Of a stretch of DNA of 64,000 nt, positions 14,531-49,326 are shown one piece after another. Origin of the DNA: Clostridia bacterium (lineage in GTDB: Bacteria; Bacillota; Clostridia; UMGS1883); assembly GCA_051866635.1 (NCBI GenBank), contig JBJDXJ010000063.1:9867-73866 (forward strand), in the 5' to 3' direction. A model generated the notes under the pieces. That model was not told where the DNA came from and did not search any database. It saw nothing but the letters and a program-made list of their open reading frames with translations. Both the position numbers and the translations under genes were made by a program. The first letter of the stretch is position 1; each line of letters starts with the position of its first letter.

Positions 14531-14593
14531 ATTTACACACCTCTGTATATAATACTTTTTACACTCCCAAAAAGTTGCAACCATTTTAAAAAG

Positions 14594-14750
14594 GGTCTGC
14601 AAAAAAAGTCAGCACTTATAACAAAAAGACCATTTCGGGACTGTCCCAACAAAACCTCGCAAGGTTTCTTTGGCAAATTGTCTCCCAATTTGCCATAAGG
14701 GGGACTGTCCCAAATGTTCTTAACTTATTTATTAGACTTTTTTGCAGCCC
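14594..14750. repeat. Copy A of a ~155-bp structured intergenic repeat with terminal inverted repeats
   Basis: Near-identical to 18599..18753 and 38615..38777. Ends GGGTCTGCAAAAAAAGTC...GACTTTTTTGCAGCCCC are inverted repeats of each other. Internal sub-hairpins AAACCTCGCAAGGTTT and GGCAAATTGTCTCCCAATTTGCC. Confidence 0.85.
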
Positions 14751-14757
14751 CTTTTAA

Positions 14758-18457: not shown

Positions 18458-18598
18458 AAAATGCAACCTCCTTTTTCAGGATATGACAAAAATATCTATT
18501 AAACATTATAGCACAATCATTTTGTATTGTAAAGTTTTGATGTTTGGAATAGTTGCACAATTTTTGCTAATTATGAAGTTTACTTAAAAGAAAAAATA

Positions 18599-18753
18599 AG
18601 GGGCTGTGAAAAGCAATTAGATAACAAAAAGACCATTTCGGGACTGTCCCAACAAAACCTCGCAAGGTTTCTTTGGCAAATTGTCTCCCAATTTGCCATA
18701 AGGGGGACTGAACCGAATGGTCTTAACTTATTTATTAGACTTTTTTACAGCCT
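18599..18753. repeat. Copy B of the structured intergenic repeat
   Basis: Same element as 14594..14750 with a few substitutions (GACTGAACCGAATGG versus GACTGTCCCAAATG). Confidence 0.85.
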
Positions 18754-18814
18754 CTTAAAATCACAAGTATTTTAATGAAAAGTTAAGAGGTGATAGTGAA
18801 TAGTGAATAAGTAA

Positions 18815-32064: not shown

Positions 32065-34119
32065 TTAATTTCCAAACAAATCCGATTGTGTAAATATTCT
32101 CTGTGCCAAAATAATAGCCTGTTCTCTTGTTGCACTTGCATAACCTGATGCTTCTTGTTGAGAAGTTGTGTTTTTAGGTGCAAAATGAGTATCGCTTACA
32201 CCTTTAATAATACCATATTTAGACATGAAGTAAACAGATGGTTTTGCCCAAGTGGATATTTCATTATCATCAGCAAAAAGCTTAACGCCATCGGTCTGCA
32301 TATAGTATTCATTATCCGTAGCCATTGTCCAATTCGGAAAACTGTATTTTTTTATAACTCTGCAAAGCATTGTTGCAAGCTGCTCTCTATTTATAAAACT
32401 CAAAGGCTCATAAGTAGTGGTTGATGTACCCTGTGCCACTTCAATCTGATATGCTTTCTTAATTGCTTTTTCGTTATCATCGTATTGTATGTCAGTAAAT
32501 GTACAAGAAGGTGATTCCTCAACGCTTCTTTTTGCCAAAACTTCATAAAGTTGAACTGCAATAGCAGCGAACTCACCTCTGTTAACCTTTTTAGTCAAGT
32601 CAAAACCAATCATCACTTCCGGAATAAGATCATTTTCAAAAGCTTCTTCAATTTCAGGAGCTGCCCATGTTGATGTGGTAGAACCAAATGATGTAACAAC
32701 CGTCTGTTTATTATTTCCGCTATCATCAATTTTTGCAAATTTCCAACCGCTATTTTCCTCTAAAACTGCAAGCACAGTCGCACCAGGAATTATTGCTTCG
32801 TATTCTATTGGAATTATCTCATTCCCATTTTTGTCAACAATTCCTTCGTATCCATCTTTTGATACTACGAAATAATCTTTGTTAAACAATTCTATTGAAT
32901 TATACTGCATGGGTAAAATAATTTTTCCGTTTGAATTAATTAATCCAACAGTGTAAACATCATCTTTGTACTTATTTAATTTGTATAAATCATCTGTTAT
33001 CCAATCATTATTCAATAAGTCTTTTCCGCGTATTTCTCTCGGTTGCTCGATTGGCAAAACAACATTTCCAGTCATGTCAATCAAACCATAAAGCCCATCT
33101 TTTTGCACTGCAAATAAATTTTCAGAAAAAACTTCTATGCTATCATAAACTAATGGAACAATAATTTCATTATTACTGTTCATTGCACCGTGTTTATCAT
33201 TATCCTCAATAAAAATCAAATTTTTATCTGAAGAATTAATTTCTGAAATATAGTATTTACTTTCACTGATGCAATTTCCATTTAAGTCATATAAATAATC
33301 TTTTTTGTCAAATGTATAGCAATTAACTATATTGTTAGCAACAGAACCTACCCACTTATACTCAAATGGAATAATGGTATTGTTATTTGTATCAATAAGC
33401 CCCCATTGTCCAGACTTTTCTGCAGAAAATATGTTATCTTTAATGAAATTAATGCTTTCATATTCTGTTGGAATAATCACATTAGCATTATAATCGGCTA
33501 TGCCGCACAATCCGTTTTGAGTTATACGAATATATTTATCAGTATTGTACAAGGAATCTATTTCTTCGTAGTTTTCTAAAATAATGTTTCCATTGTTATC
33601 AAGAATGCGATACATACCATTTTTTCTTGCAACAATATAATTATTACTTGTACCTAACTTATCCATCCACTCATAACCTAAAGGAATAATCCAGTTTCCA
33701 TTTAAGTCCATAAGACCTTCTGCATCATTTTTTATCACTCTAATTCTACTTCCGTTAAGAATAGCCATGTTGTCTCCCCAACTAGCATCATATTCTATCG
33801 GAATAATCACATTTCCAGAAGTATCAAGAACACCTGTAAAATCGCCATCTATTACGCATACTAAATTCTCATTCATAGTCCAAAGCCTGTCATAAATGGC
33901 AGGAATCACAATTTTACCATATTGATTAACAAGTCCAGTTTTGTCACCATCCTCAAACGAAAAAAAGTCGCTGTTTGTACTCGAAGATGAAGATACTAAT
34001 GTGTAATCATATTGAGATTCGTTTGTCCAATCAAAAGTTGCTGCACTTACATTAATAGATGTAGTTGTAAGTAAAGTTACGCATATAAAGATTAATACTG
34101 TATTTAGGGTTTTTTTCAT
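32065..34119 (-). CDS. Secreted WG-repeat (KWG-like) protein with C-terminal triple SLH module
   Basis: Signal peptide. About 10 repeats of the G.(V/I)IP..YD....(F/W)..G.A pattern typical of WG-containing repeats. C-terminal 200 aa are near-identical to the downstream paralogue. Confidence 0.6.
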   Translation of the reverse strand: MKKTLNTVLIFICVTLLTTTSINVSAATFDWTNESQYDYTLVSSSSSTNSDFFSFEDGDKTGLVNQYGKIVIPAIYDRLWTMNENLVCVIDGDFTGVLDTSGNVIIPIEYDASWGDNMAILNGSRIRVIKNDAEGLMDLNGNWIIPLGYEWMDKLGTSNNYIVARKNGMYRILDNNGNIILENYEEIDSLYNTDKYIRITQNGLCGIADYNANVIIPTEYESINFIKDNIFSAEKSGQWGLIDTNNNTIIPFEYKWVGSVANNIVNCYTFDKKDYLYDLNGNCISESKYYISEINSSDKNLIFIEDNDKHGAMNSNNEIIVPLVYDSIEVFSENLFAVQKDGLYGLIDMTGNVVLPIEQPREIRGKDLLNNDWITDDLYKLNKYKDDVYTVGLINSNGKIILPMQYNSIELFNKDYFVVSKDGYEGIVDKNGNEIIPIEYEAIIPGATVLAVLEENSGWKFAKIDDSGNNKQTVVTSFGSTTSTWAAPEIEEAFENDLIPEVMIGFDLTKKVNRGEFAAIAVQLYEVLAKRSVEESPSCTFTDIQYDDNEKAIKKAYQIEVAQGTSTTTYEPLSFINREQLATMLCRVIKKYSFPNWTMATDNEYYMQTDGVKLFADDNEISTWAKPSVYFMSKYGIIKGVSDTHFAPKNTTSQQEASGYASATREQAIILAQRIFTQSDLFGN

Positions 34120-34154: not shown

Positions 34155-35591
34155 TTAGTTCCCAAACATATTGCCTTTTTCAAATATTCTTTTTGCAAGA
34201 ATAATCGCCTGTTCTCTTGTTGCACTTGCATAACCCGATGCTTCTTGTTGAGAAGTTGTATTTTTAGGTGCAAAATGAGTATCGCTTACACCTTTAATGA
34301 TACCATTCTTTGACATGAAGTATACAGACGGTTTTGCCCAATCAGAGATTTCATTGTCGTCAGCAAATAATGTAGCATCATCAATATTCAAATCATATTG
34401 CGAATCTGTTGCCATTGTCCAATTAGGATAACTATATTTTTTGATAACTCTGCAAAGCATTGTTGCAAGCTGTTCTCTATTAATATTGCTAAGCGGTTCA
34501 TATGTTGTTGAAGATGTGCCTTGAGCTACTTCTATTTGATATGCTTTCTTAATTGCTTTTTCATTGTCATCATAATGAATATCAGCAAAAGTGCAGTTCT
34601 TTGATTCTTCAACACTTCTTTTTGCCAATGTTTCATACAACTGAACAGCAATTGCTGCAAATTCGCCTCTGTTGACTTTTTTTGTTAAGTCAAAATCGAG
34701 CATAACTTCGGGTATAAGATCGTTTTCAAAAGCCTCTTCAATTTCAGGGGCTGCCCATGTTGATACTTGAGCACCAAAAGATGTAGTTACAACTTCATTA
34801 CTATTTTTATTGTCAGTTGCAAATACTATTTTAGAATTTAACACGCCATCATAAAATGGTACCGGATATAAGTGTACATAATATGTACCAGGTCCCATAT
34901 GAGCAGTAATTGTGCATTTTGATGCTTCAACGCTGATACAGTCACTAAATGATGATTTATTCCCTCCTGCAATTAAGTCTTCTTCTGTATATAGCTCAGA
35001 TATAAAACATCCAATATTTGATGTACGCATAGTGTATGTGTATTTAAACTGTTCATCAGGAACTACTAACTTATACCATTTGTTATCATTCATTGAACTA
35101 AACTTTACTGTGTGTTCTTCGTTCAAGCCAATTTTAGTTGCATTCTCCCAGCCGGAAATGTTATTCGCAACTGTTCTTAATCTTATCTTTAATGTTTTAT
35201 TTCTTAAGCTTGCATTTTCAGAATTATTATAATCGAATTTTATATAACTCGAATCTATATTATCAATGTGAGGAACACTTATGTAGCCTGGTATAGAACT
35301 TACATTGTTTTGTGTCAGATGAACATAATTTCCTTTAGTGAATACATAATACTGCATAGCACCGCTATAATTGTCTGCTGAAACTTCAAATACGGTTGTT
35401 GTGTCTTTTTTTGAAACATCAATCTTAAAAAACAGATTTGAATCAAAATCGAATTCTGTCCATACATTTTCTGTAAGTAAAACTGCATTATTGTATTCGT
35501 TATCATTAAAACTTGATCCATTTGCCGATACAATTAATGTCCCTAAAAGCATAATCATCATAACTATTAATGCACTTGTAATTTTTTTCAT
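34155..35591 (-). CDS. Secreted protein with beta-rich N-terminal domain and C-terminal triple SLH module (paralogous tail to 32065..34119)
   Basis: Signal peptide. The C-terminal SFGAQVSTWAAPEIEEAF...FGN segment is nearly identical in protein and DNA to the neighbouring gene. Confidence 0.6.
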   Translation of the reverse strand: MKKITSALIVMMIMLLGTLIVSANGSSFNDNEYNNAVLLTENVWTEFDFDSNLFFKIDVSKKDTTTVFEVSADNYSGAMQYYVFTKGNYVHLTQNNVSSIPGYISVPHIDNIDSSYIKFDYNNSENASLRNKTLKIRLRTVANNISGWENATKIGLNEEHTVKFSSMNDNKWYKLVVPDEQFKYTYTMRTSNIGCFISELYTEEDLIAGGNKSSFSDCISVEASKCTITAHMGPGTYYVHLYPVPFYDGVLNSKIVFATDNKNSNEVVTTSFGAQVSTWAAPEIEEAFENDLIPEVMLDFDLTKKVNRGEFAAIAVQLYETLAKRSVEESKNCTFADIHYDDNEKAIKKAYQIEVAQGTSSTTYEPLSNINREQLATMLCRVIKKYSYPNWTMATDSQYDLNIDDATLFADDNEISDWAKPSVYFMSKNGIIKGVSDTHFAPKNTTSQQEASGYASATREQAIILAKRIFEKGNMFGN

Positions 35592-38601: not shown

Positions 38602-38614
38602 TAACGAGAAAAAT

Positions 38615-38777
38615 GGGCTGTAAAAAAGTCAACACTGAGATAACAAAAAGACCATTTCGGGACTGTCCCAACAAAACCTCGCAAGGTTTCTTTGGCAAAT
38701 TGTCTCCCAATTTGCCATAAGGGGGACTGTCCCAAATGGTCTTAATTTATTTCTTTAGAGACTTTTTTTACAGCCTC
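38615..38777. repeat. Copy C of the structured intergenic repeat
   Basis: GGGCTGTAAAAAAGTC...GACTTTTTTTACAGCC terminal inverted repeats with the same core as copies A and B. The track ORF 38418..38735 across it is spurious. Confidence 0.85.
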
Positions 38778-38822
38778 TTTTTGTGTAAAGTATTTACGAG
38801 ACAGATGATATATTAGAAATTA

Positions 38823-38860: not shown

Positions 38861-39034
38861 TTACTGTGCAGGTTTTACTGCATTTGCTCCACATGAAGGG
38901 CAAAGATTATCTGCTCTATACACCTTATCAGGATATTTCTTTGCTCTTAAACAATGAATGCACCATGTAGAACCACACTTACTACAGCGGAACATATTTG
39001 CTCCCGAAGTTTTACATAAAGGACAATATGCCAT
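38861..39034 (-). CDS. Small zinc-ribbon protein (4x CxxC)
   Basis: MAYCPLCK...CSKCG...CIHC...CPSCG, 57 aa. AGAGGTG RBS 6 nt upstream. The track's 39052 start lies upstream of the RBS. Confidence 0.55.
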   Translation of the reverse strand: MAYCPLCKTSGANMFRCSKCGSTWCIHCLRAKKYPDKVYRADNLCPSCGANAVKPAQ

Positions 39035-39221
39035 AAAAATCACCTCTTGCATTTTATTATTATAACGCTGATAACAGTAATTATTTTAACATTGGCATTT
39101 TTTCTGCAACAATATCACTAAAATATTTCGCTACAACATCTTTCTGTTATTATTTTTATTATCTCGTTTCTACAATTTCTAACGAAAATTCACACAGTGC
39201 AGCATTGAGCTGCGTTTCTAA

Positions 39222-39698
39222 TTATTCTGCTTCGGCTTGTGTAAAATCACCATTTATCGTGCATGAATCAGTATTTATTTCTTGCGTAATATGCGGAGCA
39301 AAAATGACGTTATCATCTATCGTAATCTGAATATAATTATTGGGGATTGATATTTGCGAAACTTCGTATGTGGCTTGTTTGAATTTGTCTTGTCCTTGTT
39401 TTGTGAAATTCAATTTGATGTAATAACTATCGCTTTCATCTTGTCCTGCACTTACCGCACTTATATCATTTCCTGTTAGCAGAATATTATTTTTATAATC
39501 CGTAAATTTAAGAGCCTTATCGGAAAAATTCAACATTTCCGCCATCTGTGTAATATTGTCCTGCATGGGTAATGTAACTTCAATTTTATCATCACCTTTT
39601 ATTTCTGTCTTCGCATTGACAAATCCTAAGTTTTTCAGATAATCCATATGTTTTTCTTTCGCTGTTTGTATATCATTTTGGGGATTGTCGGAATGCAA
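39222..39698 (-). CDS. Orphan SecD-head (P1 domain)-like protein, no signal peptide, no RBS; possible frameshifted fragment
   Basis: Similarity to the SecD periplasmic head (…IEVTLP…, …VIFAPHITQEI..GDFTQAEAE). Starts 19 nt after the stop of the upstream lipoprotein gene, in a different frame, with no Shine-Dalgarno. Confidence 0.35.
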   Translation of the reverse strand: MHSDNPQNDIQTAKEKHMDYLKNLGFVNAKTEIKGDDKIEVTLPMQDNITQMAEMLNFSDKALKFTDYKNNILLTGNDISAVSAGQDESDSYYIKLNFTKQGQDKFKQATYEVSQISIPNNYIQITIDDNVIFAPHITQEINTDSCTINGDFTQAEAE

Positions 39699-39716
39699 CT
39701 TATAAACAATAGTAGT

Positions 39717-40532
39717 TCATGGTTTAGTTTTCGTATTTTGTAACAATTCCTTTTTGACATCTTCCAAACTATTATAAGTTCCAACCTCTTTTAAATCACT
39801 ATCAACGACAGCCCAAACCGTTTTTGATACATAAGGCGGTCCATATATTGCCGCTATTCTTGATAATGTATTTTGGTCTAAACTTGACCTTACAATATCA
39901 TAGTGACTCTCTGCCCATAACGAACTCCAATTATAAACCATTTCAGAAGATTGCGTTGTATAATATATAGGTACTGCATTGTTTTCTTCAAAAAGAACAG
40001 TAACATCATTATTGGATTCTATGTTGGGAAAAATTTTCATAGTTGAATTGCTTATAATATTTTTGGCTTTTTCAGTTGATATAATTCCGTTTGTTCCTGT
40101 TATTTCACGCAAATATTCTTCTGCATATTCTTTGTTTTCAAGGGCATTTACACCATATTGTTCTATGTATTTTTTAAATATAGCAATACTTTTAATGTTT
40201 GTATCTTTGTCACTATTCCATATTTCCTGCTGGACAACATTAAGGGGTGTATATCCAAATATCGGAACGACAAGTTTTTTTGTTTCTGAATTTACAATAA
40301 CAAAACCATAACAATCATCGATGTTTACTAAAACTAATTTATTGTTATCGCTTCTATCTAAGCCTTGTGTATCATTTTTCAAATCAAGAATTGTCTCAAT
40401 TTTACTTGATTCAAACTCATAACCATTCTCGTTGAGTATTTCTCTCAATCTTCTGTCAGACAGGTTATTTCCGCAAGCAGATAAACAAATAACTGTTAAA
40501 ATTGCCGTCAGATACATTACAATTTTTTTCAT
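39717..40532 (-). CDS. Lipoprotein of unknown function
   Basis: MKKIVMYLTAILTVICLSAC lipobox with GGAGGG RBS. The track's upstream extension to 40607 is unlikely. Ends 2 bp after the TIR gene stop. Confidence 0.55.
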   Translation of the reverse strand: MKKIVMYLTAILTVICLSACGNNLSDRRLREILNENGYEFESSKIETILDLKNDTQGLDRSDNNKLVLVNIDDCYGFVIVNSETKKLVVPIFGYTPLNVVQQEIWNSDKDTNIKSIAIFKKYIEQYGVNALENKEYAEEYLREITGTNGIISTEKAKNIISNSTMKIFPNIESNNDVTVLFEENNAVPIYYTTQSSEMVYNWSSLWAESHYDIVRSSLDQNTLSRIAAIYGPPYVSKTVWAVVDSDLKEVGTYNSLEDVKKELLQNTKTKP

Positions 40533-40608
40533 TTCATTTTCCCTCCAATTTTCATACTTTGAAAAATATATCTGTGTGTATAACCGATTATTATCTTTAT
40601 AAATCAAA

Positions 40609-42402
40609 TTACTTCTTAGGCTTATACCTGTTAATTAAATCGGAAATATAACTTAGTGACTGCATATTCAAGGATAAATCTATAGATTTACAAACTTTTT
40701 TTACGTCCAATTCAGTTAATGCCATATTCGTAAGGTTCAATGTTGTATCTTTCGTAATAGCATTTAGAATTAGTTTGGTATTTTTATCCAATTCTCTATT
40801 TCCGCTTTCCTCTTCAGCCAATATCATTTTTGCTTTTTGCTTTGCTATAATTGTATTATACTCTGAATACAATAATATTACAGGCATAAGAAATTCTGCA
40901 ACTATGGCAAGAAAAAATAATAACAAAACAAACTGCGGTGTCCCATTACGCCTATTTGCTATAATATTCCAAGAAACAAACAAAACGGGAATACATATAG
41001 CTTCGGTAATTACAAATTTTTTTAGCATAGCTTTTTTTGCCATATCTTTCAAGGCAAAATAATCGTTTTCAAGTTTTGTAAATTTTTGATGTAATGCTAA
41101 TTCGGACTGTTCTTTTTTAGCCTTTTCCTCTTGCTCTTTTGCCAATTTTTCTTCGGCAATTTTTTTATATTTAGCCTGTGCCGTTTCGCAATAGTTAATC
41201 AAAACCGGCTTAAAATTATCATCAGCAAATCGTAACGCATTTTGATAACTCATTGATTTACTATAATCAACTGCTCTGTTTGCAAGGTTTTCCTCTTTGT
41301 TAACTTTAATTTCAATCATTAGTTTTCCAAGATATGCACGAGCATTTTCCGGCTCGTGGTTTAACACTTGCTCTAAAAGCTCATCGGCTTTTTGCCATTC
41401 CGCAGCTTCAATAAGTATAAATGCTCTTTTCAATAGAGGCTCGGATTGAAAAACTTCCGTTTTATTGACAACATTAACATTTGGTTGTGCCGTTTCCTTT
41501 TGCAGTACCTTTTTTATTCCTCTTATCAAATCCTGAACAAATCCGATTTTGCTCATATCCTGACTTTGAAACATTGAAATCTCGTCCGGTAAATCATATG
41601 CGTCCATATCACGATAGCAAGGAATAATCATTTTTGACTTGTCACGTTTTGCCAAATCCAAAAATCTTGCCCATTCATTTTTAACCCAAATTGCATTAAA
41701 ATATTCTTTGCTTGTACCGACAACGAGCATTACCTTTGCGGAATTTAGGGCAGAAAATATGTACGGCTCATATTCCGTTCCGAGTTTGTCCTCCAAGGTT
41801 ATTCTGCTGAAAAATACCTTGTAACCCTCGTTAGTAAGCTGATAGTAAATATCTTGTGCAAGAGTTGAGTCGATTGTTCGTTTACCGCTGTTATCCGTTT
41901 CTTTATAGCATATGAAAATGTCATAGGGAGCTTCTTTAGAGGCTATCGACAATATATTTTTTTGTATTGCGGAAATTGCTTCGGCTTCCTGCTTATATAA
42001 GCTTTGAGCCTGATAATCGTCCGAATATTCAACAGCGGCTTTATAGTCCAGATCAGACAATATAGATTCATTCTGCACTCTGTGGCAGGTAGGCACTCGT
42101 TTATGCGTTTTCGGGTCCTCAACATATTCGATACCATACCTTGAAAGAACACATCCCCAGTATGCTTCTGCATTCCTATTATCCTCTGTTAAAATGCTTT
42201 CATAAGCCGAAAGAGCCTTATCAAACTCGTTTTGCAGTCTGAAATGGTTTGCTCTGTCAAACAAATTCAGTATTCGTTCATCATTAACATTCGGCAGCGT
42301 CATTGTACTTCCGCAACTGTCGCATACACCGACTTTCTGATTTTCGGTAATCTCAATATTACCTCCGCACATTTTACATTTTAATATTGCCATCTTTACC
42401 AC
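40609..42402 (-). CDS. Zinc-ribbon / TPR-like / TIR-domain protein with C-terminal transmembrane helices
   Basis: N-terminal CKMCG..CDSCG ribbon. TIR motifs YDIFICYKETD (betaA), KVFFS, and AIWVKNEWARFL (alphaC W..E with candidate catalytic Glu). After a coiled-coil there are 2-3 hydrophobic helices (ICIPVLFVSWNIIA, VLLLFFLAIVAEFLMPVILL). Confidence 0.7.
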   Translation of the reverse strand: MVKMAILKCKMCGGNIEITENQKVGVCDSCGSTMTLPNVNDERILNLFDRANHFRLQNEFDKALSAYESILTEDNRNAEAYWGCVLSRYGIEYVEDPKTHKRVPTCHRVQNESILSDLDYKAAVEYSDDYQAQSLYKQEAEAISAIQKNILSIASKEAPYDIFICYKETDNSGKRTIDSTLAQDIYYQLTNEGYKVFFSRITLEDKLGTEYEPYIFSALNSAKVMLVVGTSKEYFNAIWVKNEWARFLDLAKRDKSKMIIPCYRDMDAYDLPDEISMFQSQDMSKIGFVQDLIRGIKKVLQKETAQPNVNVVNKTEVFQSEPLLKRAFILIEAAEWQKADELLEQVLNHEPENARAYLGKLMIEIKVNKEENLANRAVDYSKSMSYQNALRFADDNFKPVLINYCETAQAKYKKIAEEKLAKEQEEKAKKEQSELALHQKFTKLENDYFALKDMAKKAMLKKFVITEAICIPVLFVSWNIIANRRNGTPQFVLLLFFLAIVAEFLMPVILLYSEYNTIIAKQKAKMILAEEESGNRELDKNTKLILNAITKDTTLNLTNMALTELDVKKVCKSIDLSLNMQSLSYISDLINRYKPKK

Positions 42403-43439
42403 ATCCGGTCCTCATACGATGTATTTTCAATTCCTTGTTCTCTTAATTTTTTCACCATTTTATCAAGTTTTCCACGCCAGAATTTTTTAAACCAAATGGT
42501 ATTACCAAACCATTTTACAATTGTTGGGCTTATTGCATAATATGTTCTGATAAACGCTCTGCCATACCAAGTTTCAGCTAATATATAGTCACGATAACGG
42601 CGAAGCGTCCAAACCTCAGGACAGTCATAAGAGCCATATACACAGGTAGCAACATAACAGCCACCGCTACTGAACGTCAATCCTTGATATGACGGGTTGT
42701 ATTTCTTTATTTTGTCCACATATGAAAGAATTTCCTTCTTTGATTCTTCACTGGTAAATTTGTAATTAATGCGTATATCAATTCCTTTTTCCCACGCTTT
42801 TGCACACATTGTACCGACTTCGGGGTGTTCAATATATCGTTTTTCAAGTTGATCTCCCAACTCAAATAATAATAAATATAAAGCCTTGCAGTTTTCTACA
42901 AAATCAGACTCAACACCACGTGTATCTTTAAATCTTTGGTAGTGATTTTGAGCATTGATGTATAATAATTGGGCAAAGTCTTCTGTTTTTGTGTATACCT
43001 GCACAAATGCGTTTGATTCCTCTTCGGATGTCGTATAATTGTCTATAAGATCAAAAACACTATTCAAGCAATTGGATAATTTATATGCCGCAGATGATAT
43101 TTCTCCTATTTTACATTGAGCAACATGAAAGTAAGTTGTATAATATGCTGCTTCCCAGCTGTTTGGATCCTCAACCAAAATCATATCATAATATTTTTCA
43201 GCTTGTGCATCATCATTGTTATCTTTTGCACGTCTTGCTACAGTGTATAAATTATTTAATCTTTCTAATTTATCTGCCGAAAAATTTGTATCAAATTTTT
43301 TTGCTTTTGATTTAACACTAACATTTCCGTGTGATACGGCATGCTCGTCTTTAAAAACCTCGCCACATTGCCGGCATATATATACATTGCCGTCTTTATC
43401 CAACTCGCCACCACAGGATTTGCATTCTAAATATGACAT
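42396..43439 (-). CDS. Zinc-ribbon / TPR-like protein with conserved Cys-rich C-terminal module (paralogous N-terminus to the TIR protein)
   Basis: CKSCGG..CRQCG ribbon. YYDMILVEDPNSWEAAYY parallels AYESILTEDNRNAEAYWG of the TIR protein. C-terminal GGCYVATCVYGSYDCPEVWTLRRYRD. 7-bp overlap with the TIR gene start. Confidence 0.55.
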   Translation of the reverse strand: MSYLECKSCGGELDKDGNVYICRQCGEVFKDEHAVSHGNVSVKSKAKKFDTNFSADKLERLNNLYTVARRAKDNNDDAQAEKYYDMILVEDPNSWEAAYYTTYFHVAQCKIGEISSAAYKLSNCLNSVFDLIDNYTTSEEESNAFVQVYTKTEDFAQLLYINAQNHYQRFKDTRGVESDFVENCKALYLLLFELGDQLEKRYIEHPEVGTMCAKAWEKGIDIRINYKFTSEESKKEILSYVDKIKKYNPSYQGLTFSSGGCYVATCVYGSYDCPEVWTLRRYRDYILAETWYGRAFIRTYYAISPTIVKWFGNTIWFKKFWRGKLDKMVKKLREQGIENTSYEDRMW

Positions 43440-43503
43440 TTCAAAAATACTCTCCTTCTATGTATGATTTTTACTTAGTTTACTATTCCATAGATTTCCT
43501 AAC

Positions 43504-43944
43504 TTAATTTGAATATGTTGTCTTTAATTCAACCTTTTTGGTTTCTTCACAATTTGGGCAGTAAAAACCACCAGTAAAGCTACCGGGGGTGGTTACAGTA
43601 GTACTTGGTTCTGTATATCCGCAACTATCACATTTCTTTTTATAAACTACTTTGTTTTCATGATTATCTTCAATAATTATTGCATTAGAAATTGCAACTG
43701 TAGTACTGGATTGTTTATTTTCTTGTACTTGATTGTAATTTCCGTAATAATTATTTGTAGATGTTGAATTTGTACTTTTTTTATCAGTAGACTCATTCGG
43801 TGTTTCTACATAATTATCAACTGATTCGCTATATTGCTGATTTGAATCATCTGTGTTTTGATATGTTGAATCGCCTTGTGGTGTGCAAGCTGTTACACAA
43901 ATCATCGTAAAAATCACTAAAATGTAAGATATATGTTTTTGCAT
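43504..43944 (-). CDS. Lipoprotein with low-complexity linker and C-terminal zinc ribbon
   Basis: Lipobox ICVTAC, S/T/N-rich linker, CDSCG...CPNC. Confidence 0.5.
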   Translation of the reverse strand: MQKHISYILVIFTMICVTACTPQGDSTYQNTDDSNQQYSESVDNYVETPNESTDKKSTNSTSTNNYYGNYNQVQENKQSSTTVAISNAIIIEDNHENKVVYKKKCDSCGYTEPSTTVTTPGSFTGGFYCPNCEETKKVELKTTYSN

Positions 43945-43948
43945 TTAA

Positions 43949-44386
43949 TTACCTCCAATAATTTTCCTTTTCTTTTATAAATTCTTTATGTTTTTGTTCC
44001 GCCTTGCTGTCAACTTCATTGATATATTCACTGCCTGCCGTTATAGCGATTATTCTTATTATAAATACCGCTAAAACTGCAATATGTATTACAAGCGTCC
44101 ATAATACATACAAAGAAATCAAGCAAGCAATTACCGAAAAAAACACACTGATTATTGAATATATTACAGCTGTATAAACAAACGCATGACCTTGGGGGGT
44201 TTTTGTAGTTTCTCTCTTACCGAACACACAGAGGCTCAATGCTATACCTATTATTGCAATCAAGGTAAATATATACGAAACAATAAATGTGTCCGTAATT
44301 GGAACAACTATAAACAATAGAGATACAACTACCGCCATAATAATGGCTGATATAATAATTTTTGTGTTATTATTCATTTGTACCAC
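43949..44386 (-). CDS. Small polytopic membrane protein (4 TM)
   Basis: 145 aa, four hydrophobic helices. Overlaps the SPFH gene by 17 bp (translational coupling). Confidence 0.5.
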   Translation of the reverse strand: MVQMNNNTKIIISAIIMAVVVSLLFIVVPITDTFIVSYIFTLIAIIGIALSLCVFGKRETTKTPQGHAFVYTAVIYSIISVFFSVIACLISLYVLWTLVIHIAVLAVFIIRIIAITAGSEYINEVDSKAEQKHKEFIKEKENYWR

Positions 44387-45623
44387 CTTCTATTCTATAC
44401 CCACATTCTAAGCAGAATTTAGCACCATTAGGTACTTCCTTTCCGCAGTTGGAACAAATAAGTTGTAATTTACCGCCACACTCCATACAGAATTTACCTT
44501 TTGGTGTTTTGCTTCCGCATTGAGGACATATCATTTCATTGTCTGAAAGCTGTTCAATCTTCGTTCCGCACTCGAGACAGAATTTTGCATTTTCGGGTAA
44601 GGTATTACCGCACTTCGGACATATTGAAGTTGATTTTGATGTATTCATATTTACTGCATTTCCTATGCTGTCATTTACAACTCCGCCGACAGCACTGCCA
44701 ACGCTTGTCATGACTCCAAGCCCTATACCCAAGCCAGCCATATTTCCTCCGCCTTCATTTTTAGCAAAGCCTTCGGCAACATCAAAACCTCGTTCCTGTT
44801 GATATGTATAGCCTTCAATCTGACGTTTTGCAGCCATGCCTTCCGCTTCTAAAATCATTTTCTGCTTTTCGGTTTCTTGCTTAATAATATCAACATTTTG
44901 TTGCAATTTTGCTTCTGCAATATCTGCGTACTGTCTGAAATGCAAACTCTTAAATCGCTTATATGTACTGTCATCTTCGGGTTTTACAATGGTCGTTACA
45001 AAGAAATGCACCAACGAAACACCGTATTCCTCAAAATCAGGAATAAGTAATTTATGTAAGCTTTCCGAAATTTCATTAAGTTTTTCATCAATTTGAAAAA
45101 TGTTTATTCCGTTATTCCGGATATATGTTGACAAATACGTTTTGAACCTTATCATAAGAAAAGCTCTAAACTTTTGTGTCAAGCCTGCTTGTGTAAGTAC
45201 ATTTTCCGTGCCGACTATTTTTACCAAGAGTTTTTTTGCATCGGAAACTCTCAAACTCATTTCGCCGCTTGCACCTATTTGAAGCGGAAAATTGTATGTG
45301 GGTTCCATATATTCAATTTTACTGTCCGTCCCCCACCGAATGTTCATTTGCTCGGTTTTATTTATAAAGTATACCTCGCAATGAAATGGTGTTTTATCAT
45401 TAAAAGGCTTATTAAAAAACTTTCTGATAAGCGGAATATTTTGAGTTTCTAATGTATGTCTGCCTGCTTCAAAACTATCAAGAAGTTGTCCGTTCATGTA
45501 GAAAACCGCTTCTTGCGATTCGTGAACGATAAGTTGTGTTGTTGTATTAAAGTCTTCACAAGGGTGTTTCCATACAAAGGTTGAGTTATCACCCTCATAC
45601 TTAATTACATCTGCTATTTGCAC
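44370..45623 (-). CDS. SPFH/band-7-like domain protein with three tandem C-terminal double zinc ribbons
   Basis: N-terminal about 300 aa resemble the SPFH-domain family. C-terminus has three CP(K/Q)CG...C.ECG repeats. Confidence 0.55.
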   Translation of the reverse strand: MQIADVIKYEGDNSTFVWKHPCEDFNTTTQLIVHESQEAVFYMNGQLLDSFEAGRHTLETQNIPLIRKFFNKPFNDKTPFHCEVYFINKTEQMNIRWGTDSKIEYMEPTYNFPLQIGASGEMSLRVSDAKKLLVKIVGTENVLTQAGLTQKFRAFLMIRFKTYLSTYIRNNGINIFQIDEKLNEISESLHKLLIPDFEEYGVSLVHFFVTTIVKPEDDSTYKRFKSLHFRQYADIAEAKLQQNVDIIKQETEKQKMILEAEGMAAKRQIEGYTYQQERGFDVAEGFAKNEGGGNMAGLGIGLGVMTSVGSAVGGVVNDSIGNAVNMNTSKSTSICPKCGNTLPENAKFCLECGTKIEQLSDNEMICPQCGSKTPKGKFCMECGGKLQLICSNCGKEVPNGAKFCLECGYRIEGGTNE

Positions 45624-45756
45624 GCTATACTCATATCCTTTCCAGATCGTTTACTAAAAGTGTACTGTAAGAGAGCTCTTTATATTTGCAGTCTTGATAT
45701 ATTTTGCAATTGCTTTTGCTATTTTATTGAGTTAACATTTGGCTCATACGCATCTT

Positions 45757-45800
45757 CTTTAAATAGCTCATTTCACCTAAACAAATAGCTCATTTCACCT
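45757..45800. repeat. Perfect 22-bp tandem duplication (AAATAGCTCATTTCACCTAAAC x2) spanning the stop codon of gene 45773..46819
   Basis: Two identical adjacent 22-mers. The first copy encodes the last residues and TGA stop of the minus-strand gene. Confidence 0.8.
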
Positions 45801-46819
45801 AAACCGCTTTGCAATTTTATTCCCAATATACCTTCATCTTCATACATGTAAAAATAACTACCATTGTAGTAGAGTGAATAAGCATAAATACCATCTATTT
45901 CATCTATGTACTCCCATGTTCCGCCCCGAACAATTCTACCAAAATCATCAATCTCATCTAATAAATCTTTAACTTCCAAACTGTCCCGAAATGTACCATT
46001 ATAAGCATTATAAGACGGCATGCTGACAGACATATGTCCATCACCTTCAAATGTGTATTGAACACCGGTAGCTTTTTTCCATGTGCCGATAATTGCCACT
46101 TTGCTTTCAATACTTTTTGCGAGTTTTTTCGCTTCACTTTTTGTTTTTTCATCAGCATTAACATTCTTCTCTATGTCTTTAAGACATTCGTCCGCAAAAA
46201 TATATCCACCATCTTCTATAAATTTTTTTGCCGAATTAAGATTTTTTATTGCCATCTCTCGTTGAGCTTCTACAAAATCATCAACGTACTTACCATTCGG
46301 GTAGTAGTCCATGTACACATCATAAAATCTATTAATTTCATATTCATCATCATTACAATTCAACAATTCCGTATAGAGGTCTTCTTCTACATCTTCTTTT
46401 AATGCATTAATCTTTTTTATATATCGTTTTTTATTGGAATAGGTTTCACTAAATTCTTCAATATCTTCCAATGTATTACGGTAATCGTCATGTTCTTTTT
46501 TTACCGGATATTGATATTCATTGACAATTTCCTTATACAATTTAGCTTCAGGATTAGGAATTAAAATCATGAGAATTACAAAGGCTACCGAAATAACAGC
46601 TATAATAGGCAGGATTTTTTTCTTAAGCGGTTTGACATTTCTGGAATAATCTAATTCATAGGAACTTTCCTCTTGTTCTGTTACTTCTGCATTTACAGTT
46701 ATGGTTTCTTCCTTTTTTATGTTCTTCTCTTGCATTTTGTCATCCGATTCATCAGCCTGACATTTTTCACAAAAGCCATTCTCCATAAATTTTCCGCACT
46801 TAGGACAAATACTTGACAT
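45773..46819 (-). CDS. Zinc-ribbon / single-TM protein with extracytoplasmic domain of unknown function
   Basis: N-terminal CPKCG...CEKC, acidic linker, transmembrane helix (ILPIIAVISVAFVILMILI), about 250 aa external domain. Confidence 0.5.
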   Translation of the reverse strand: MSSICPKCGKFMENGFCEKCQADESDDKMQEKNIKKEETITVNAEVTEQEESSYELDYSRNVKPLKKKILPIIAVISVAFVILMILIPNPEAKLYKEIVNEYQYPVKKEHDDYRNTLEDIEEFSETYSNKKRYIKKINALKEDVEEDLYTELLNCNDDEYEINRFYDVYMDYYPNGKYVDDFVEAQREMAIKNLNSAKKFIEDGGYIFADECLKDIEKNVNADEKTKSEAKKLAKSIESKVAIIGTWKKATGVQYTFEGDGHMSVSMPSYNAYNGTFRDSLEVKDLLDEIDDFGRIVRGGTWEYIDEIDGIYAYSLYYNGSYFYMYEDEGILGIKLQSGLGEMSYLFR

Positions 46820-47304: not shown

Positions 47305-47362
47305 AAAGCACAGAAAAAGTCCCGGACAAATTGTCCAAGACTTTTCTGTGCTTTTTATTTTA
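47305..47362. terminator. Hairpin terminator between convergent RHH gene and Ser/Thr kinase gene
   Basis: AAAGCACAGAAAAAGTC...GACTTTTCTGTGCTTT stem followed by TTTTATTTT. Confidence 0.55.
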
Positions 47363-48832
47363 ATATACAGGTACTAATCTATTCTCCTCCAATGCATAGC
47401 CTGTTATATCGCCCAAATCATACCATTCAACGTTAAACTTTTTTGTATATGCAGTCATATAGAAGGAATACTCTTTTGAAAACATATCTCCTTCGCAGAG
47501 ATAAAAGCCTGTTTCCTCATCGTATTTTATACACCATGCAATACAATAATTAAAATTATTGTAAAACTGATGCTCGATAACCCCGATGCATCCTTCGTTA
47601 AGCCCTATCAACAGCTCGGGCACATCGTCATAGTCCATATCACAACAGATTATATCGGCGTTTTTTCTGTCTGGCGGATTAAAAAGGCTGTAATCGTACT
47701 GCCCATTGTAGGCAAATTCACCTGTGAAATCGTGTCCGTAGTCATCATTAAGATAAACCTTAAGTTTGCCGTCTGAAAGGGTTATGTCGGCATTGACCAA
47801 AGTATTGTTTTCTCCCAGCTTTATTTTGCCTTTTTTATTTCCGTCCTCTAAAAACAGCAGATGGTCCCAGGGCTTGTACATTGAAAAAATCGCCACATGA
47901 TTATATGTAGGGTATTTGCTGTACTCCTCCATTTTGCTGTCAGATGCAAATCCGGTAAAATATGTATCTTCATCTAATGTGATTTCCGCTTCTGTATCTT
48001 TTTCATCTATTTCGGCAGTTATGCTATTGGAAGGTTTCTCCATATAGAGGGCATTATCCGTTGGGTTTGTGGGCTGTTTTTTGTCAAAGGCGGCGTTACT
48101 TTTTCCATTTATCAGACAAATGCAGGCAACAAGTGCCAAAAGGGCAGATGCGGCACATATTGCAGGAGGTATTATACGGCAAAATATTATTGCACGATGT
48201 AAGGCTTTAACGTTTTTATACCGCTGGGACGGGTCAAGCCGCTTGCATTTTTCCGATATTTTGTGCAAACAACCCTTTATACCTAAGTAATCCAATACAG
48301 CCTGTATTGTTGCACCAAAGGCATATATATCTGTTTTAAAATCTGTGGGCATCATGCCGTACTGTTCAATAGGGGCATAACCGAAGGTGCCCATTTTTTC
48401 GGTATCTTGCCGTATTTCAGACCTGTAAATGCGGGCAATATCGTAATCAATCAACCATATGTGATTTGACGCATCAACAAGTATATTGTCGGGCTTAATA
48501 TCTCTGTGGATAATATTTTGACTGTGTAGGACTGCTAATGCATCTGTCAATTGTAGCATAATGGAGCGTATTTCTTTTTTTGTGAACTTACGACCTTCCT
48601 CCATAAGTGTTGATAAGGACTTGCCTTCAATATATTCCTCAACAACAACTGTTTTATCGCCAAATTCCACAGAGAAAATCTTTGGTATGTTGGGGCTTGA
48701 AATTTTTTGAAGGTTTTTGTAAATTTCACGCTTGTCCCCTTCTATTTCCCTTTTGAGATATTTTTTGCCGTTATCTGTACAGAGAACAATTTTCTGCCTG
48801 TCATTTTGTTTTAAAATCTCACATTCTTTCAA
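47360..48832 (-). CDS. Hanks-type serine/threonine protein kinase with TM helix and extracellular domain
   Basis: HRDIKPDNILV catalytic loop, DYDIARIY (DFG-equivalent), GTFGYAPIE activation segment. Transmembrane segment (IIPPAICAASALLALVACICLI). No PASTA repeats. Confidence 0.85.
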   Translation of the reverse strand: MKECEILKQNDRQKIVLCTDNGKKYLKREIEGDKREIYKNLQKISSPNIPKIFSVEFGDKTVVVEEYIEGKSLSTLMEEGRKFTKKEIRSIMLQLTDALAVLHSQNIIHRDIKPDNILVDASNHIWLIDYDIARIYRSEIRQDTEKMGTFGYAPIEQYGMMPTDFKTDIYAFGATIQAVLDYLGIKGCLHKISEKCKRLDPSQRYKNVKALHRAIIFCRIIPPAICAASALLALVACICLINGKSNAAFDKKQPTNPTDNALYMEKPSNSITAEIDEKDTEAEITLDEDTYFTGFASDSKMEEYSKYPTYNHVAIFSMYKPWDHLLFLEDGNKKGKIKLGENNTLVNADITLSDGKLKVYLNDDYGHDFTGEFAYNGQYDYSLFNPPDRKNADIICCDMDYDDVPELLIGLNEGCIGVIEHQFYNNFNYCIAWCIKYDEETGFYLCEGDMFSKEYSFYMTAYTKKFNVEWYDLGDITGYALEENRLVPVY

Positions 48833-48903
48833 TCAAATCCCTCCTTGCAAAATGTTACAATTTGTATTATCATAATTATATTAAATTTAAGGAGTGTTTG
48901 TCA

Positions 48904-49326
48904 ATGGCTTCAATTACGGAAGAACTGTTAACCGAATTAAAAAACGCCTCTGATTTACAAAGCTTTTTTAAAAAGCACGAAAATGACTTTATCGAAAAGA
49001 GCCTTGATGTTTATTTAAACGAGTTTTTAGCCGCAAAAGGGATAAGCATTTCGGACATTATAAAATCATCCGGTGCAGGGGAATATGCTTACAAAATATT
49101 TAAAGGGGAAAGAAAGCCCTCGAGAGATATTCTCATATCAATAGCATTCGGTATGGGGCTTTCTTTGCAGGAAACACAACTTATGCTACGCATTGCAAAA
49201 TTTGCTGTTTTAGACCCCAGGGATAAACGTGACGGAGTTATAATATATGCATTAACCCACAATATGACAGTATTTGAGGCTGACGATGTTTTAGACGAAA
49301 ACAATTTCACCACAATTAACAGTTAA
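48904..49326 (+). CDS. Helix-turn-helix domain protein (XRE-like)
   Basis: ISISDIIKSSGAGEYAYKIFKGERKPSRDILISIAFGMGLS HTH. AAGGAG RBS. The track start 48862 lies upstream of the RBS. Confidence 0.6.
   Translation: MASITEELLTELKNASDLQSFFKKHENDFIEKSLDVYLNEFLAAKGISISDIIKSSGAGEYAYKIFKGERKPSRDILISIAFGMGLSLQETQLMLRIAKFAVLDPRDKRDGVIIYALTHNMTVFEADDVLDENNFTTINS

Follow-up and report, generated by a model that had tools for sequence, protein, structure and literature searches.

In Bacillus subtilis, SamGHI (YdjGHI) is a module of the pspA operon in which SamI, a Band-7/SPFH protein of the cytosol, lacks an anchor and has a low-complexity stretch and, at its C-terminus, a zinc finger. SamG (YdjG), a TM protein that starts with a zinc ribbon, and SamH, a second multi-pass membrane protein, recruit SamI, which restrains their signalling. 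TIR domains play a central part in animal, plant and bacterial immunity; the TIR enzymes of bacterial defence systems are activated by assembly, bacterial TIR domains assayed so far are mostly NADases, and bacterial Tcp proteins are TIR proteins as well. The bacterial TIR systems known to us are cytoplasmic sensors or signal generators. In Thoeris and similar systems (ThsB, TIR-SAVED, TIR-STING and Rst 2TM-1TM-TIR), a TIR domain with a catalytic-Glu position occurs together with membrane proteins in the operon, as was found here; however, in the locus described below the TIR protein is itself membrane-anchored, carries a zinc ribbon-TPR head and has an SPFH partner. SARM1, the animal TIR NADase, differs in having regulatory ARM and SAM domains in place of the zinc ribbon, TPR units, stalk and TM segments found here.

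The TIR gene was found on the minus strand of the window, i.e., the whole stretch of 64,000 nucleotides analysed, as an ORF at 40609..42402 of 597 aa when counted from GTG. This GTG at 42402, given by the ORF tool, lies three codons upstream of an ATG at 42393, which is almost certainly the true start because the family consensus begins with MAxLKCKMCGG and because an identical NCBI protein (P0001) is 594 aa long. From this ATG, which sits 2 nt past the TAA of the upstream gene (ZnRCFI347), the gene covers 40609..42393 (−), with 594 codons and a stop codon at 40609-40611. A database search with the TIR protein gave significant scores for 8,000 of 8,000 scored candidates, the best being 60–83% identical, and relatives in this number point to a real gene and rule out a chance ORF. 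All motifs listed in the original prediction were recovered, namely CKMCGG at aa 9, CDSCG at 27, YDIFICYKETD at 160, KVFFS at 195 and NEWARF at 242; these motif positions follow the 597-aa numbering, and the aa ranges given with nucleotide coordinates below are counted from ATG 42393 (594-aa form).

The protein begins with a C4 zinc ribbon (aa 1–35, 42289..42393 (−); C6, C9, C24, C27), in which C9, C24 and C27 were invariant and C6 was conserved in at least 90% in an alignment of relatives. It formed three short strands in both AF2 models and gave a weak A2L_zn_ribbon match. It is followed by a first TPR-like three-helix unit (aa 36–85, 42139..42288 (−)) and by a conserved beta-hairpin (GIEYVED...PTCHR) with a helical connector (aa 86–155, 41929..42138 (−)), which matched no Pfam family, consisted of strands 88–92 and 99–103 and helices 115–152 in the AF2 model and showed highly conserved columns. 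A second TPR-like and helical unit (aa 317–392, 41218..41445 (−)) lies beyond the TIR domain and was modelled as helices with pLDDT >90. Pfam TPR models matched aa 47–83 and aa 322–359, the latter as TPR_19/TPR_14. The zinc ribbon and TPR-like pair predicted originally are present, and in the model this head would pack against a canonical TIR domain. Binding of nucleic acids by the zinc ribbon, which had also been proposed, found no support. A role in protein docking is favoured instead, because the product of the adjacent TIR-less gene starts with the same zinc ribbon-TPR module (hhalign probability 94%), and because the cassette parallels SamGHI, in which a zinc-ribbon membrane protein recruits the SPFH protein.

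The identity of the TIR domain (aa 156–299, 41497..41928 (−)) was confirmed by a match to TIR_2 (PF13676) over aa 162–284 (46.1 bits vs a cutoff of 28, E = 8.5e-12). The second half of the domain was poorly modelled in the first AF2 model and improved in a model of aa 1–310 built with 89 sequences (pLDDT 84, pTM 0.80), which showed canonical TIR topology, i.e., a five-strand, five-helix flavodoxin-like fold nearest to solved TIR domains. A Foldseek search of PDB with the full-length model gave weak TPR-type matches, none at E ≤ 0.001. The candidate catalytic Glu of the original prediction corresponds to E240 (codon 41674-41676) within the WxxxE motif W236-V-K-N-E240 (41674..41688 (−)), with W236 four residues before it; both residues were invariant in 46 and in 89 relatives and also in 29 genome-derived sequences. 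In an alignment with the TIR domain of flax L6, E240 falls on the Glu of its W-x-x-x-E helix. The same column also holds a Glu in a TLR15/TLR2 TIR, the only one reached when the family TIR profile, which was too narrow, was compared with PDB sequences. To our knowledge, TLR TIRs are a receptor class not known as NADases. Since a TLR TIR also carries Glu in this column, the motif is necessary and not sufficient, and catalysis is unproven by the motif alone; NADase activity of the window protein is suggested at the sequence level.

The head is followed by a long charged helical stalk (aa 393–459, 41017..41217 (−)), part of one unbroken helix at aa 395–479 in the AF2 model. The coiled coil proposed for this region is possible and unproven: the heptad signal was weak (best register 0.56 hydrophobic at a/d positions vs 0.41 overall, with 47% E/K/R/D/Q), and charged helical stalk is therefore the safer term. 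The predicted C-terminal TM helices held up in the hydropathy check, which gave two hydrophobic 19-mers (aa 463–483 and 490–512 in the 597-aa numbering) with Kyte-Doolittle means of 2.0 and 2.8 separated by a loop of 6 residues, and AlphaFold modelled both as helices. They form a membrane hairpin (40867..41016 (−)) of TM1 (aa 460–480), the loop RRNGTP and TM2 (aa 487–509). With the TM pair as a hairpin anchor, both protein ends are predicted to be cytoplasmic and nothing to be exposed outside, and the C-terminal helical domain (aa 510–594, 40612..40866 (−); AF2 pLDDT 87–95) is likewise predicted to be cytoplasmic. This domain was shared with P0041, P0007 and P0053 (BLASTP 29–43% identity), two of which are longer and add a third TM as well as a PASTA domain. 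According to the model, the window TIR protein is thus a membrane-anchored protein without an ectodomain, and the hairpin anchor is a minority form within the family.

Upstream of the TIR gene and on the same strand, four genes were found. SPFH417 (44370..45623 (−)) encodes a SamI/YdjI-like SPFH protein (Band_7_1, 132 bits in Pfam) with a coiled coil, a Gly-rich low-complexity stretch and three CxxC...CxxC ribbons, and without a TM or other hydrophobic segment. The end of this gene is overlapped by mem145 (43949..44386 (−)), encoding a 4-TM protein in a short 145-aa form that showed 52–66% identity to its counterparts in loci L001 and L004; a 235-aa form of the 4-TM protein also exists. It is followed by a slot of variable content, which in the window holds a 146-aa lipoprotein with CxxC...CxxC near its C-terminus (43504..43944 (−)), present as a 51% identical copy at the same position in L004, and ZnRCFI347 (42396..43439 (−)), a TIR-less paralogue with a zinc ribbon-TPR head and a CFI-box C-terminal domain (NCBIfam NF041770, 71 bits). 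The head of ZnRCFI347 is common to the TIR protein (BLASTP 7e-6), and its tail also terminates the TIR-head proteins L070_tir and P0122. Coupling of the window genes is seen in the SPFH/4-TM overlap and in the 2 nt between the ZnRCFI347 stop and the TIR ATG. Downstream and on the same strand, a lipoprotein gene with a signal peptide (MKKIV...LSAC, from ATG 40532) at 39717..40532 (−) is possibly co-transcribed with the TIR gene. This gene was found only in the window, and its origin by gene fission as a detached ectodomain was rejected, as it showed no similarity to any family tail.

Comparison of loci showed the SPFH-zinc ribbon gene near the TIR gene and on its strand in 52 of 80 loci: in 39 it lay upstream at no more than 3.5 kb, in 6 upstream at 3.5–8 kb and in 7 on the downstream side. 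It was absent from the available flank in the other 28, and in just 10 of these the flank was short. After the SPFH gene, a 3–5-TM ORF was present in 36 of the 39 loci with SPFH within 3.5 kb upstream, and across loci the slot that separates the 4-TM gene from the TIR gene contained DUF2971, DUF4365, HEPN-like or stand-alone TIR genes. Reciprocal look-ups from SPFH homologues recovered the order SPFH, 141-aa protein and TIR in two of three loci; in the third, the place of TIR was taken by a different multi-TM protein headed by a zinc ribbon. The conserved cassette thus consists of an SPFH zinc-ribbon scaffold, a small 4-TM protein and at least one zinc-ribbon-headed membrane protein, and the TIR gene is its third member. 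A Ser/Thr kinase was considered as a core member and rejected, being present in only 4 distinct loci and the window.

This cassette has the same three-part layout as SamGHI: SPFH417 corresponds to SamI, the TIR protein and ZnRCFI347 to SamG and the 4-TM protein to SamH. SPFH417 shows the features of SamI given above, and the two membrane partners are found in the TIR protein, with its zinc ribbon and TM hairpin, and in the multi-pass mem145. For the membrane partners, the likeness to SamG and SamH is one of layout. The gene order differs, and here the zinc-ribbon partner bears TPR-TIR-TPR, to which relatives add lectin-like or propeller tails. The ORF scan, which spanned 38861-46819, gave no PspA family match. 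Housekeeping genes (NrdR, MutS2, FtsH, BipA, CarAB) surround the cassette, without an obvious defence island. Membrane-spanning TIR effectors of some defence systems were mentioned originally; in PADLOC, the eight operon proteins matched 0 families at E ≤ 0.1, with membrane-TIR models such as Rst 2TM-1TM-TIR included.

The architecture, at first regarded as unusual, turned out to be the usual head in a very large family of Clostridia. The head alone matched 2,386 clusters at E ≤ 1e-30; the best 150 of the matches were listed, and for fused domains this search covers these stronger head matches. It occurs in >588 reference genomes, mostly of gut and rumen Clostridia, with Anaerotignum sp. MSJ-24 (L042) as a cultured carrier, and showed 60–83% identity between the window protein and the 120 relatives listed. 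Across different Clostridia families it was 52–66% identical, which is unusually high for an immune gene and speaks against an immune reading. The window protein has the composition of this family, with a ~400-aa head (zinc ribbon, TPR, hairpin, TIR and TPR), then a helical stalk and membrane segments. A literature search that covered this architecture, SPFH combined with TIR, and 2TM-1TM-TIR yielded no description of it. tblastn searches against phages and plasmids found no copies of the TIR protein, and no match was found in PHROGs.

The constant cytoplasmic head of the family is combined with exchangeable membrane and tail modules. Among 74 complete relatives, 56 had one TM followed by 200–400 aa, and of 55 tails of relatives, 40 were DUF6273 (C-type-lectin-like) and 12 RCC1, both predicted to lie outside the cell; PASTA tails occurred in the closest full-length relatives. 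Paralogues were found in tandem arrays of 2–6, with heads 53–90% identical and tails often unrelated. In five genomes the tail is targeted by a diversity-generating retroelement (DGR), with A-to-N mismatches between the repeats of 16/17, 24/26, 17/20, 17/21, 20/20 and 17/20. RVT_1 genes accompany the full signature of a DGR target at three loci (L014, L025 and L050), and a partial signature was found at L049 and L059, which have no RT in the available flank; bAvd-like ORFs were present at all five, each under the Pfam cutoff. A search of the window for a DGR variable or template repeat found none, and the window copy has no lectin tail. DGR-diversified C-type-lectin sensors with TIR or CHAT effectors have been described in Thiohalocapsa PB-PSB1 and in cyanobacteria (PMC10907252, PMC7517822), and the relatives resemble them in being targeted by a DGR and in having both a TIR domain and a lectin-like variable region at the C-terminus. 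Published targets are for the most part STAND or MoxR-vWA proteins in the cytoplasm of multicellular proteobacteria and cyanobacteria (PMC10907252, PMC7517822), whereas the relatives found here, from gut Clostridia, cross the membrane once and have a lectin domain predicted outside. The dominant topology of the family places a variable ligand-type domain outside and the TIR inside, with one TM between them, and resembles that of Toll-like and IL-1 receptors. This is an analogy only: the polarity is inverted (TIR at the N-terminus, ectodomain at the C-terminus), the ectodomains share no relationship and the TIR output is probably enzymatic.

We consider, at even odds (probability about 0.5), that the gene product is a scaffold-associated, membrane-tethered cytoplasmic TIR NADase for envelope surveillance or immunity. 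The observed domain composition, fold, conserved residues, membrane segments and synteny, and in relatives the tail swapping and DGR targeting, form the basis of this reading; from these we infer NADase activity, a contact between the SPFH and TIR proteins, to which synteny and the analogy with SamGHI point, as well as the trigger and the immune role. The SPFH oligomer would dock on its membrane partners and keep the TIR protomers apart, or clamped by the flanking TPR units. Envelope disturbance, or binding of an outside ligand in ectodomain-bearing paralogues, would free the protomers, and the freed TIR domains would self-associate and cleave NAD+. The resulting NAD+ depletion or nucleotide signal may lead to growth arrest, likely used in protection against phage or other envelope attack. 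A further and more tentative proposal is that the family forms a repertoire of transmembrane TIR receptors, i.e., a surface immune system that would bring Toll-like logic and somatic diversification to gut Clostridia, in which the constant head is combined with swappable and in some genomes DGR-hypermutated ectodomains (lectin-like or beta-propeller), in tandem arrays that a SamI-like SPFH scaffold organises at the membrane, the window gene being an ectodomain-less co-receptor, adaptor or amplifier.

The operon contains no recognisable cognate signal-sensing effector, which counts against the NADase reading, as do the missing ectodomain of the window copy, the lack of PADLOC, phage, plasmid or PHROG matches, the housekeeping neighbourhood and the 28 of 80 loci without the SPFH gene. 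A housekeeping module for envelope-stress or cell-wall signalling, a Clostridial counterpart of SamGHI in which the TIR output would be a second-messenger generator or an assembly platform tuning physiology, is possible at clearly less than even odds. The component layout, the genomic surroundings, the absence of PADLOC, phage and plasmid matches and the PASTA tails of the nearest full-length relatives all fit such a module, and the very high head conservation and broad spread are consistent with vertical inheritance in Clostridia. DGR hypermutation, tail-swapped arrays and conflict-type cargo in the cassette are, however, hallmarks of conflict systems, and pspA was not among the operon ORFs scanned.

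The operon could also work as a Thoeris-like pair, in which the TIR domain makes a cyclic ADP-ribose-type signal and the 4-TM protein is a membrane-breaching effector that senses it via its cytoplasmic tail, with the SPFH protein as regulator. TM-helix effectors are indeed common in newly described Thoeris types (10.64898/2025.12.03.692087), and the 4-TM gene is almost always found with the cassette, mostly with a ~100-aa conserved cytoplasmic C-terminal domain; but the window 4-TM protein is the short 145-aa form without most of this domain, the TIR protein gave no ThsB_TIR or PADLOC Thoeris match, and the operon has no SLOG, Macro, SIR2, SAVED or STING domain, which makes this arrangement unlikely. 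Equally doubtful is a non-catalytic TIR that, like those of animal TLR/MyD88 signalling, would act only in homotypic assembly or as an adaptor and recruit other TIR proteins at the membrane, since W236 and E240 do not vary at all in the family, as expected of an enzyme, and since the bacterial TIR domains tested are mostly NADases. That the protein is a secreted or host-directed, Tcp-like virulence factor disturbing TLR signalling in the gut host is very improbable: Tcp proteins carry TIR and the hosts are gut and rumen bacteria, but there is no signal peptide, the N-terminus being a Cys4 zinc ribbon, the TIR domain lies on the cytoplasmic side of the hairpin, with positive charges before the TM in relatives, and the gene sits tightly within an operon of membrane proteins.

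The NADase reading places a catalytic-looking TIR domain at the inner membrane face, joined in most members of the family to variable domains predicted outside. If functional as proposed, it would directly link SPFH membrane microdomains to NAD+-based immunity or stress signalling. The window gene is a simple ectodomain-less member, convenient for enzymology and for work on the SPFH interaction. The family, a very abundant one in the dominant human-gut and rumen Clostridia, would then provide a prokaryotic parallel to Toll-like receptor topology.

The TIR gene was located on the minus strand, in an ORF (40609..42402) whose coordinates agree exactly with the original prediction and which would encode 597 aa if begun at GTG. 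Because an identical NCBI protein, P0001 ('MAG: toll/interleukin-1 receptor domain-containing protein [Clostridia bacterium]'), is 594 aa long and the family consensus starts with MAxLKCKMCGG, the true start is almost certainly the ATG at 42393, 2 nt past the TAA of the upstream gene. Residues are given in 594-aa numbering, except for TPR matches (597-aa numbering). All motifs cited in the original prediction were found, and the TIR identity was borne out by Pfam TIR_2 (46.1 bits, cutoff 28). TPR models matched at aa 47–83 and 322–359, and a zinc-ribbon (ZnR) model matched the N-terminus weakly.

In a first AlphaFold model of the full-length protein (46 sequences), confidence was high for the head, the second TPR, a continuous helix (395–479), a hairpin and a C-terminal helical domain, but the TIR domain was poorly modelled in its second half; Foldseek with this model was uninformative, giving only weak TPR-type matches in PDB, none at E<=0.001. 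A second model of aa 1–310 (89 sequences; pLDDT 84, pTM 0.80) showed a three-stranded zinc ribbon, three helices (39–85), a conserved beta-hairpin (88–103), helices 115–152 and a canonical TIR, in agreement with the zinc ribbon and TPR-like helices predicted at the N-terminus. E240 was placed in helix aC of the TIR. Both W236 and E240 were invariant in each of three sequence sets (n = 46, 89, 29), and the HMMER alignment set WVKNEW opposite WCLMEL of flax L6 TIR, the place of the catalytic Glu in plant TIRs. The Glu proposed in the W..NEW helix thus stands as a catalytic candidate; TLR15/TLR2 TIR likewise has Glu in this column, and the motif is therefore no proof of catalysis. The expected C-terminal TM helices corresponded to two strongly hydrophobic segments (TM1, aa 460–480; TM2, aa 487–509) separated by 6 residues (RRNGTP) and modelled as a hairpin. 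As for the proposed coiled coil, a long, highly charged helix is present, but its heptad signal is only weak. The gene is real and conserved; its product is anchored in the membrane and carries, on the cytoplasmic side, a bona fide TIR with a catalytic-type motif.

A database search with the window protein scored 8,000 candidates, every one of them significant; the best relatives among the matches listed showed 60–83% identity over the first ~400 residues and unrelated C-termini. The head alone (aa 1–155) was detected in 2,386 representatives of 50%-identity clusters (E<=1e-30). When each species was represented by one genome, the family was found in at least 588 genomes, with 52–66% identity between heads; most belong to gut and rumen Clostridia (Oscillospiraceae, Lachnospiraceae, Acutalibacteraceae, Christensenellales, Anaerovoracaceae). 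The architecture, originally regarded as unusual, is thus shared across a huge family in which the head stays constant and the tail varies. No match to the TIR protein was found in phage and plasmid collections, PHROGs or PADLOC. Heads with 54–61% identity were also seen at loci L008, L009, L037, L044 and L045, from MAGs labelled Sphaerochaetaceae, Holophagales, Phycisphaerales, planctomycete and Anaerolineaceae, through either horizontal transfer or bin contamination.

Most complete relatives from the scanned genomes (56/74) had a single TM at about residue 500–560 followed by 200–400 residues. Because Lys/Arg clusters precede the TM (e.g., KKRRKRIKK in P0118), an extracellular location is predicted for this tail. 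Tails carried DUF6273 (40/55) or RCC1-type propellers (12/55), often preceded by TPR-like repeats. Published work describes DUF6273 as a C-type-lectin-like domain found in phage receptor-binding proteins and also as a target of diversity-generating retroelements (DGRs; PMC10743442, PMC11792537). The window protein represents a minority form, in which the hairpin is followed by an 85-residue helical domain, predicted cytoplasmic, shared with relatives P0041, P0007 and P0053; the latter two have a third TM and a PASTA domain beyond it.

At many loci, 2–6 complete paralogues were arranged head-to-tail, including same-strand arrays of 3–6 (L063:2240-19252; L034:6231-16570; L028:6098-15342; L040:5386-12778). 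Within arrays, heads were 53–90% identical and tails often unrelated or only 30–60% identical; in L034, heads were 88–90% identical with no significant similarity between tails. This pattern indicates that tails are swapped on a constant head.

A repeat screen showed that at five loci a 119–157-bp segment at the extreme 3′ end of a TIR-family gene with a DUF6273 tail recurs as a second copy (L014:12424-14477; L025:6520-8572; L050:2676-4761; L049:8376-13009; L059:12422-13247). The second copy lay 0.5–0.7 kb downstream; only the upstream paralogue of L049 was further from its match (~4.3 kb), and at this locus one template matches two tandem paralogues. At nearly all mismatches the downstream copy had A and the gene had any base (16/17, 24/26, 17/20, 17/21, 20/20 and 17/20), so that 81–100% of mismatches fell at template adenines. 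A bAvd-like ORF lay between the copies in all five loci (E 1e-9 to 7e-5, each under the Pfam 40-bit cutoff) and an RVT_1 reverse transcriptase past the template repeat in three (L014, L025, L050). Judged from these features, the five loci hold DGRs that act on the predicted outer domain of TIR receptors. No DGR was found in the 64-kb window. TIR-containing DGR targets have been reported from Thiohalocapsa and cyanobacteria (PMC10907252, PMC7517822), and neither paper mentions Clostridia; those targets are mostly cytoplasmic STAND or CHAT proteins, whereas in the Clostridial relatives the DGR acts on a predicted outer domain.

On the minus strand of the window, the gene order was SPFH417, encoding an SPFH zinc-ribbon protein (44370–45623), the overlapping 4-TM gene mem145 (43949–44386), a 146-aa lipoprotein (43504–43944), ZnRCFI347, a TIR-less ZnR+TPR paralogue with a CFI-box (42396–43439), the TIR gene, another lipoprotein (39717–40532) and a SecDF-P1-head-like ORF (39222–39698). 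The 146-aa lipoprotein has a low-complexity linker and a C-terminal CxxC...CxxC that would be extracellular, and a 51% identical copy occupies the same position in L004. The SecDF-like ORF, downstream of the TIR operon on the same strand, is a stand-alone 158-aa ORF whose only match is to the P1 head subdomain of SecDF (Pfam 55.9 bits); it has no TM part.

The TIR gene shows conserved linkage to SamI-like SPFH and 4-TM genes. A same-strand SPFH-ZnR gene was found within 3.5 kb upstream in 39 of 80 loci, further upstream in 6 and downstream in 7; it was absent from the available flank in 28, of which 10 had a flank too short to tell. The ORF after the SPFH gene had 3–5 TM segments in 36 of the 39 loci (~235 aa, or ~142 aa like the window copy). 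Starting from SPFH homologues (3 loci), the order SPFH, 141-aa protein, TIR was found in two; in the third (L086:8599-9915) a 438-aa protein takes the TIR position; it has a zinc ribbon at the N-terminus, TM helices at the C-terminus and a different domain between them. A Cys-rich lipoprotein gene follows it. SPFH417 contains Band_7_1, a coiled coil, a Gly-rich low-complexity stretch and three zinc ribbons, without TM, in agreement with the published layout of B. subtilis SamI/YdjI. In B. subtilis, SamG/YdjG (a zinc-ribbon TM protein) and SamH/YdjH recruit SamI to the membrane, and SamI restrains their signalling (10.64898/2026.02.06.704340, PMC8581546, 10.1101/2021.02.15.431232). The window operon differs from SamGHI in that no pspA was found among the operon ORFs scanned.

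Of the 39 loci, 13 carried extra genes in a slot that separates the 4-TM gene from the TIR gene. Besides unknowns, these encode DUF2971 (three loci), HEPN-like (pEK499_p136-like) proteins under cutoff, a stand-alone TIR_2 of 141 aa and DUF4365 (L020, with a near-identical protein in L036); cargo of these four kinds was located at several loci (L011:1927-2724; L014:9114-10004; L021:8418-9086; L020:9486-10001; L007:7659-8267; L015:9456-9959; L035:2063-2488). In the window, L004 and L070 this slot is occupied by ZnRCFI347. Over its first ~100 residues this protein shows homology to the ZnR+TPR head of the TIR protein (BLASTP 7e-6; hhalign probability 94%, E=1.2e-7), and its CFI-box C-terminal domain (NCBIfam NF041770) also ends two TIR-head proteins without predicted TM, L070_tir and P0122. 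The ZnR+TPR head is thus a portable module common to cassette members, and for this reason, of the two roles originally suggested for the zinc ribbon, protein docking fits better than nucleic-acid binding.

A membrane Ser/Thr kinase gene (47360–48832, minus strand) is flanked by a promoter-like site (48875–48904; perfect 12/12 sigma-70-type match) and a strong terminator-like hairpin (47314–47346). In L004 and L086, close homologues were located upstream of the SPFH gene at a distance of a few kb, with weaker kinase-domain matches in L022 and L074; since it was confined to these loci and the window, the kinase was rejected as a core cassette member. A ~150-nt element in three copies (14588–14755, 18594–18756, 38609–38781; 90–96% identical), with terminal inverted repeats (GGGCTGTAAAAAAGTC ... 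GACTTTTTTACAGCC) and nested palindromes, did not match Rfam and probably represents a MITE-like or intergenic palindromic repeat; one of the copies borders the TIR operon on its downstream side, beside mntP. A ~605-bp direct repeat (32092–32695 and 34182–34785; 82% identical) joins the 3′ parts of adjacent SLH-domain surface-protein genes (32065–34119 and 34155–35591) and is probably a paralogous anchor region.

Conflict-type features are present in relatives, and we give a probability of about 0.5 to a TIR NADase that serves immunity, held by an SPFH scaffold and released by envelope perturbation or ligand. The scaffold and the flanking TPR units would keep the TIR inactive; envelope perturbation, or ligand binding in paralogues with an ectodomain, would then allow TIR self-association, and the TIR would cleave NAD+, leading to NAD+ depletion or signalling. 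A less probable but serious alternative is that the same machinery serves physiological envelope-stress signalling, which is supported by the housekeeping neighbourhoods of the cassette, the strong conservation of the head and the lack of phage or plasmid matches. Thoeris-like signalling from the TIR protein to the 4-TM protein seems unlikely, and so, to the same degree, does a purely scaffolding TIR; a secreted virulence factor is highly improbable.

The constituent domains are all known already, and the NCBI title already names a TIR-domain protein. The literature searched gave no account of this ZnR-TPR-TIR-TM family or its linkage to SPFH genes, nor of Clostridial membrane TIR receptors targeted by DGRs. 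The family provides a striking context for the window copy, which itself represents the plain form, without ectodomain.
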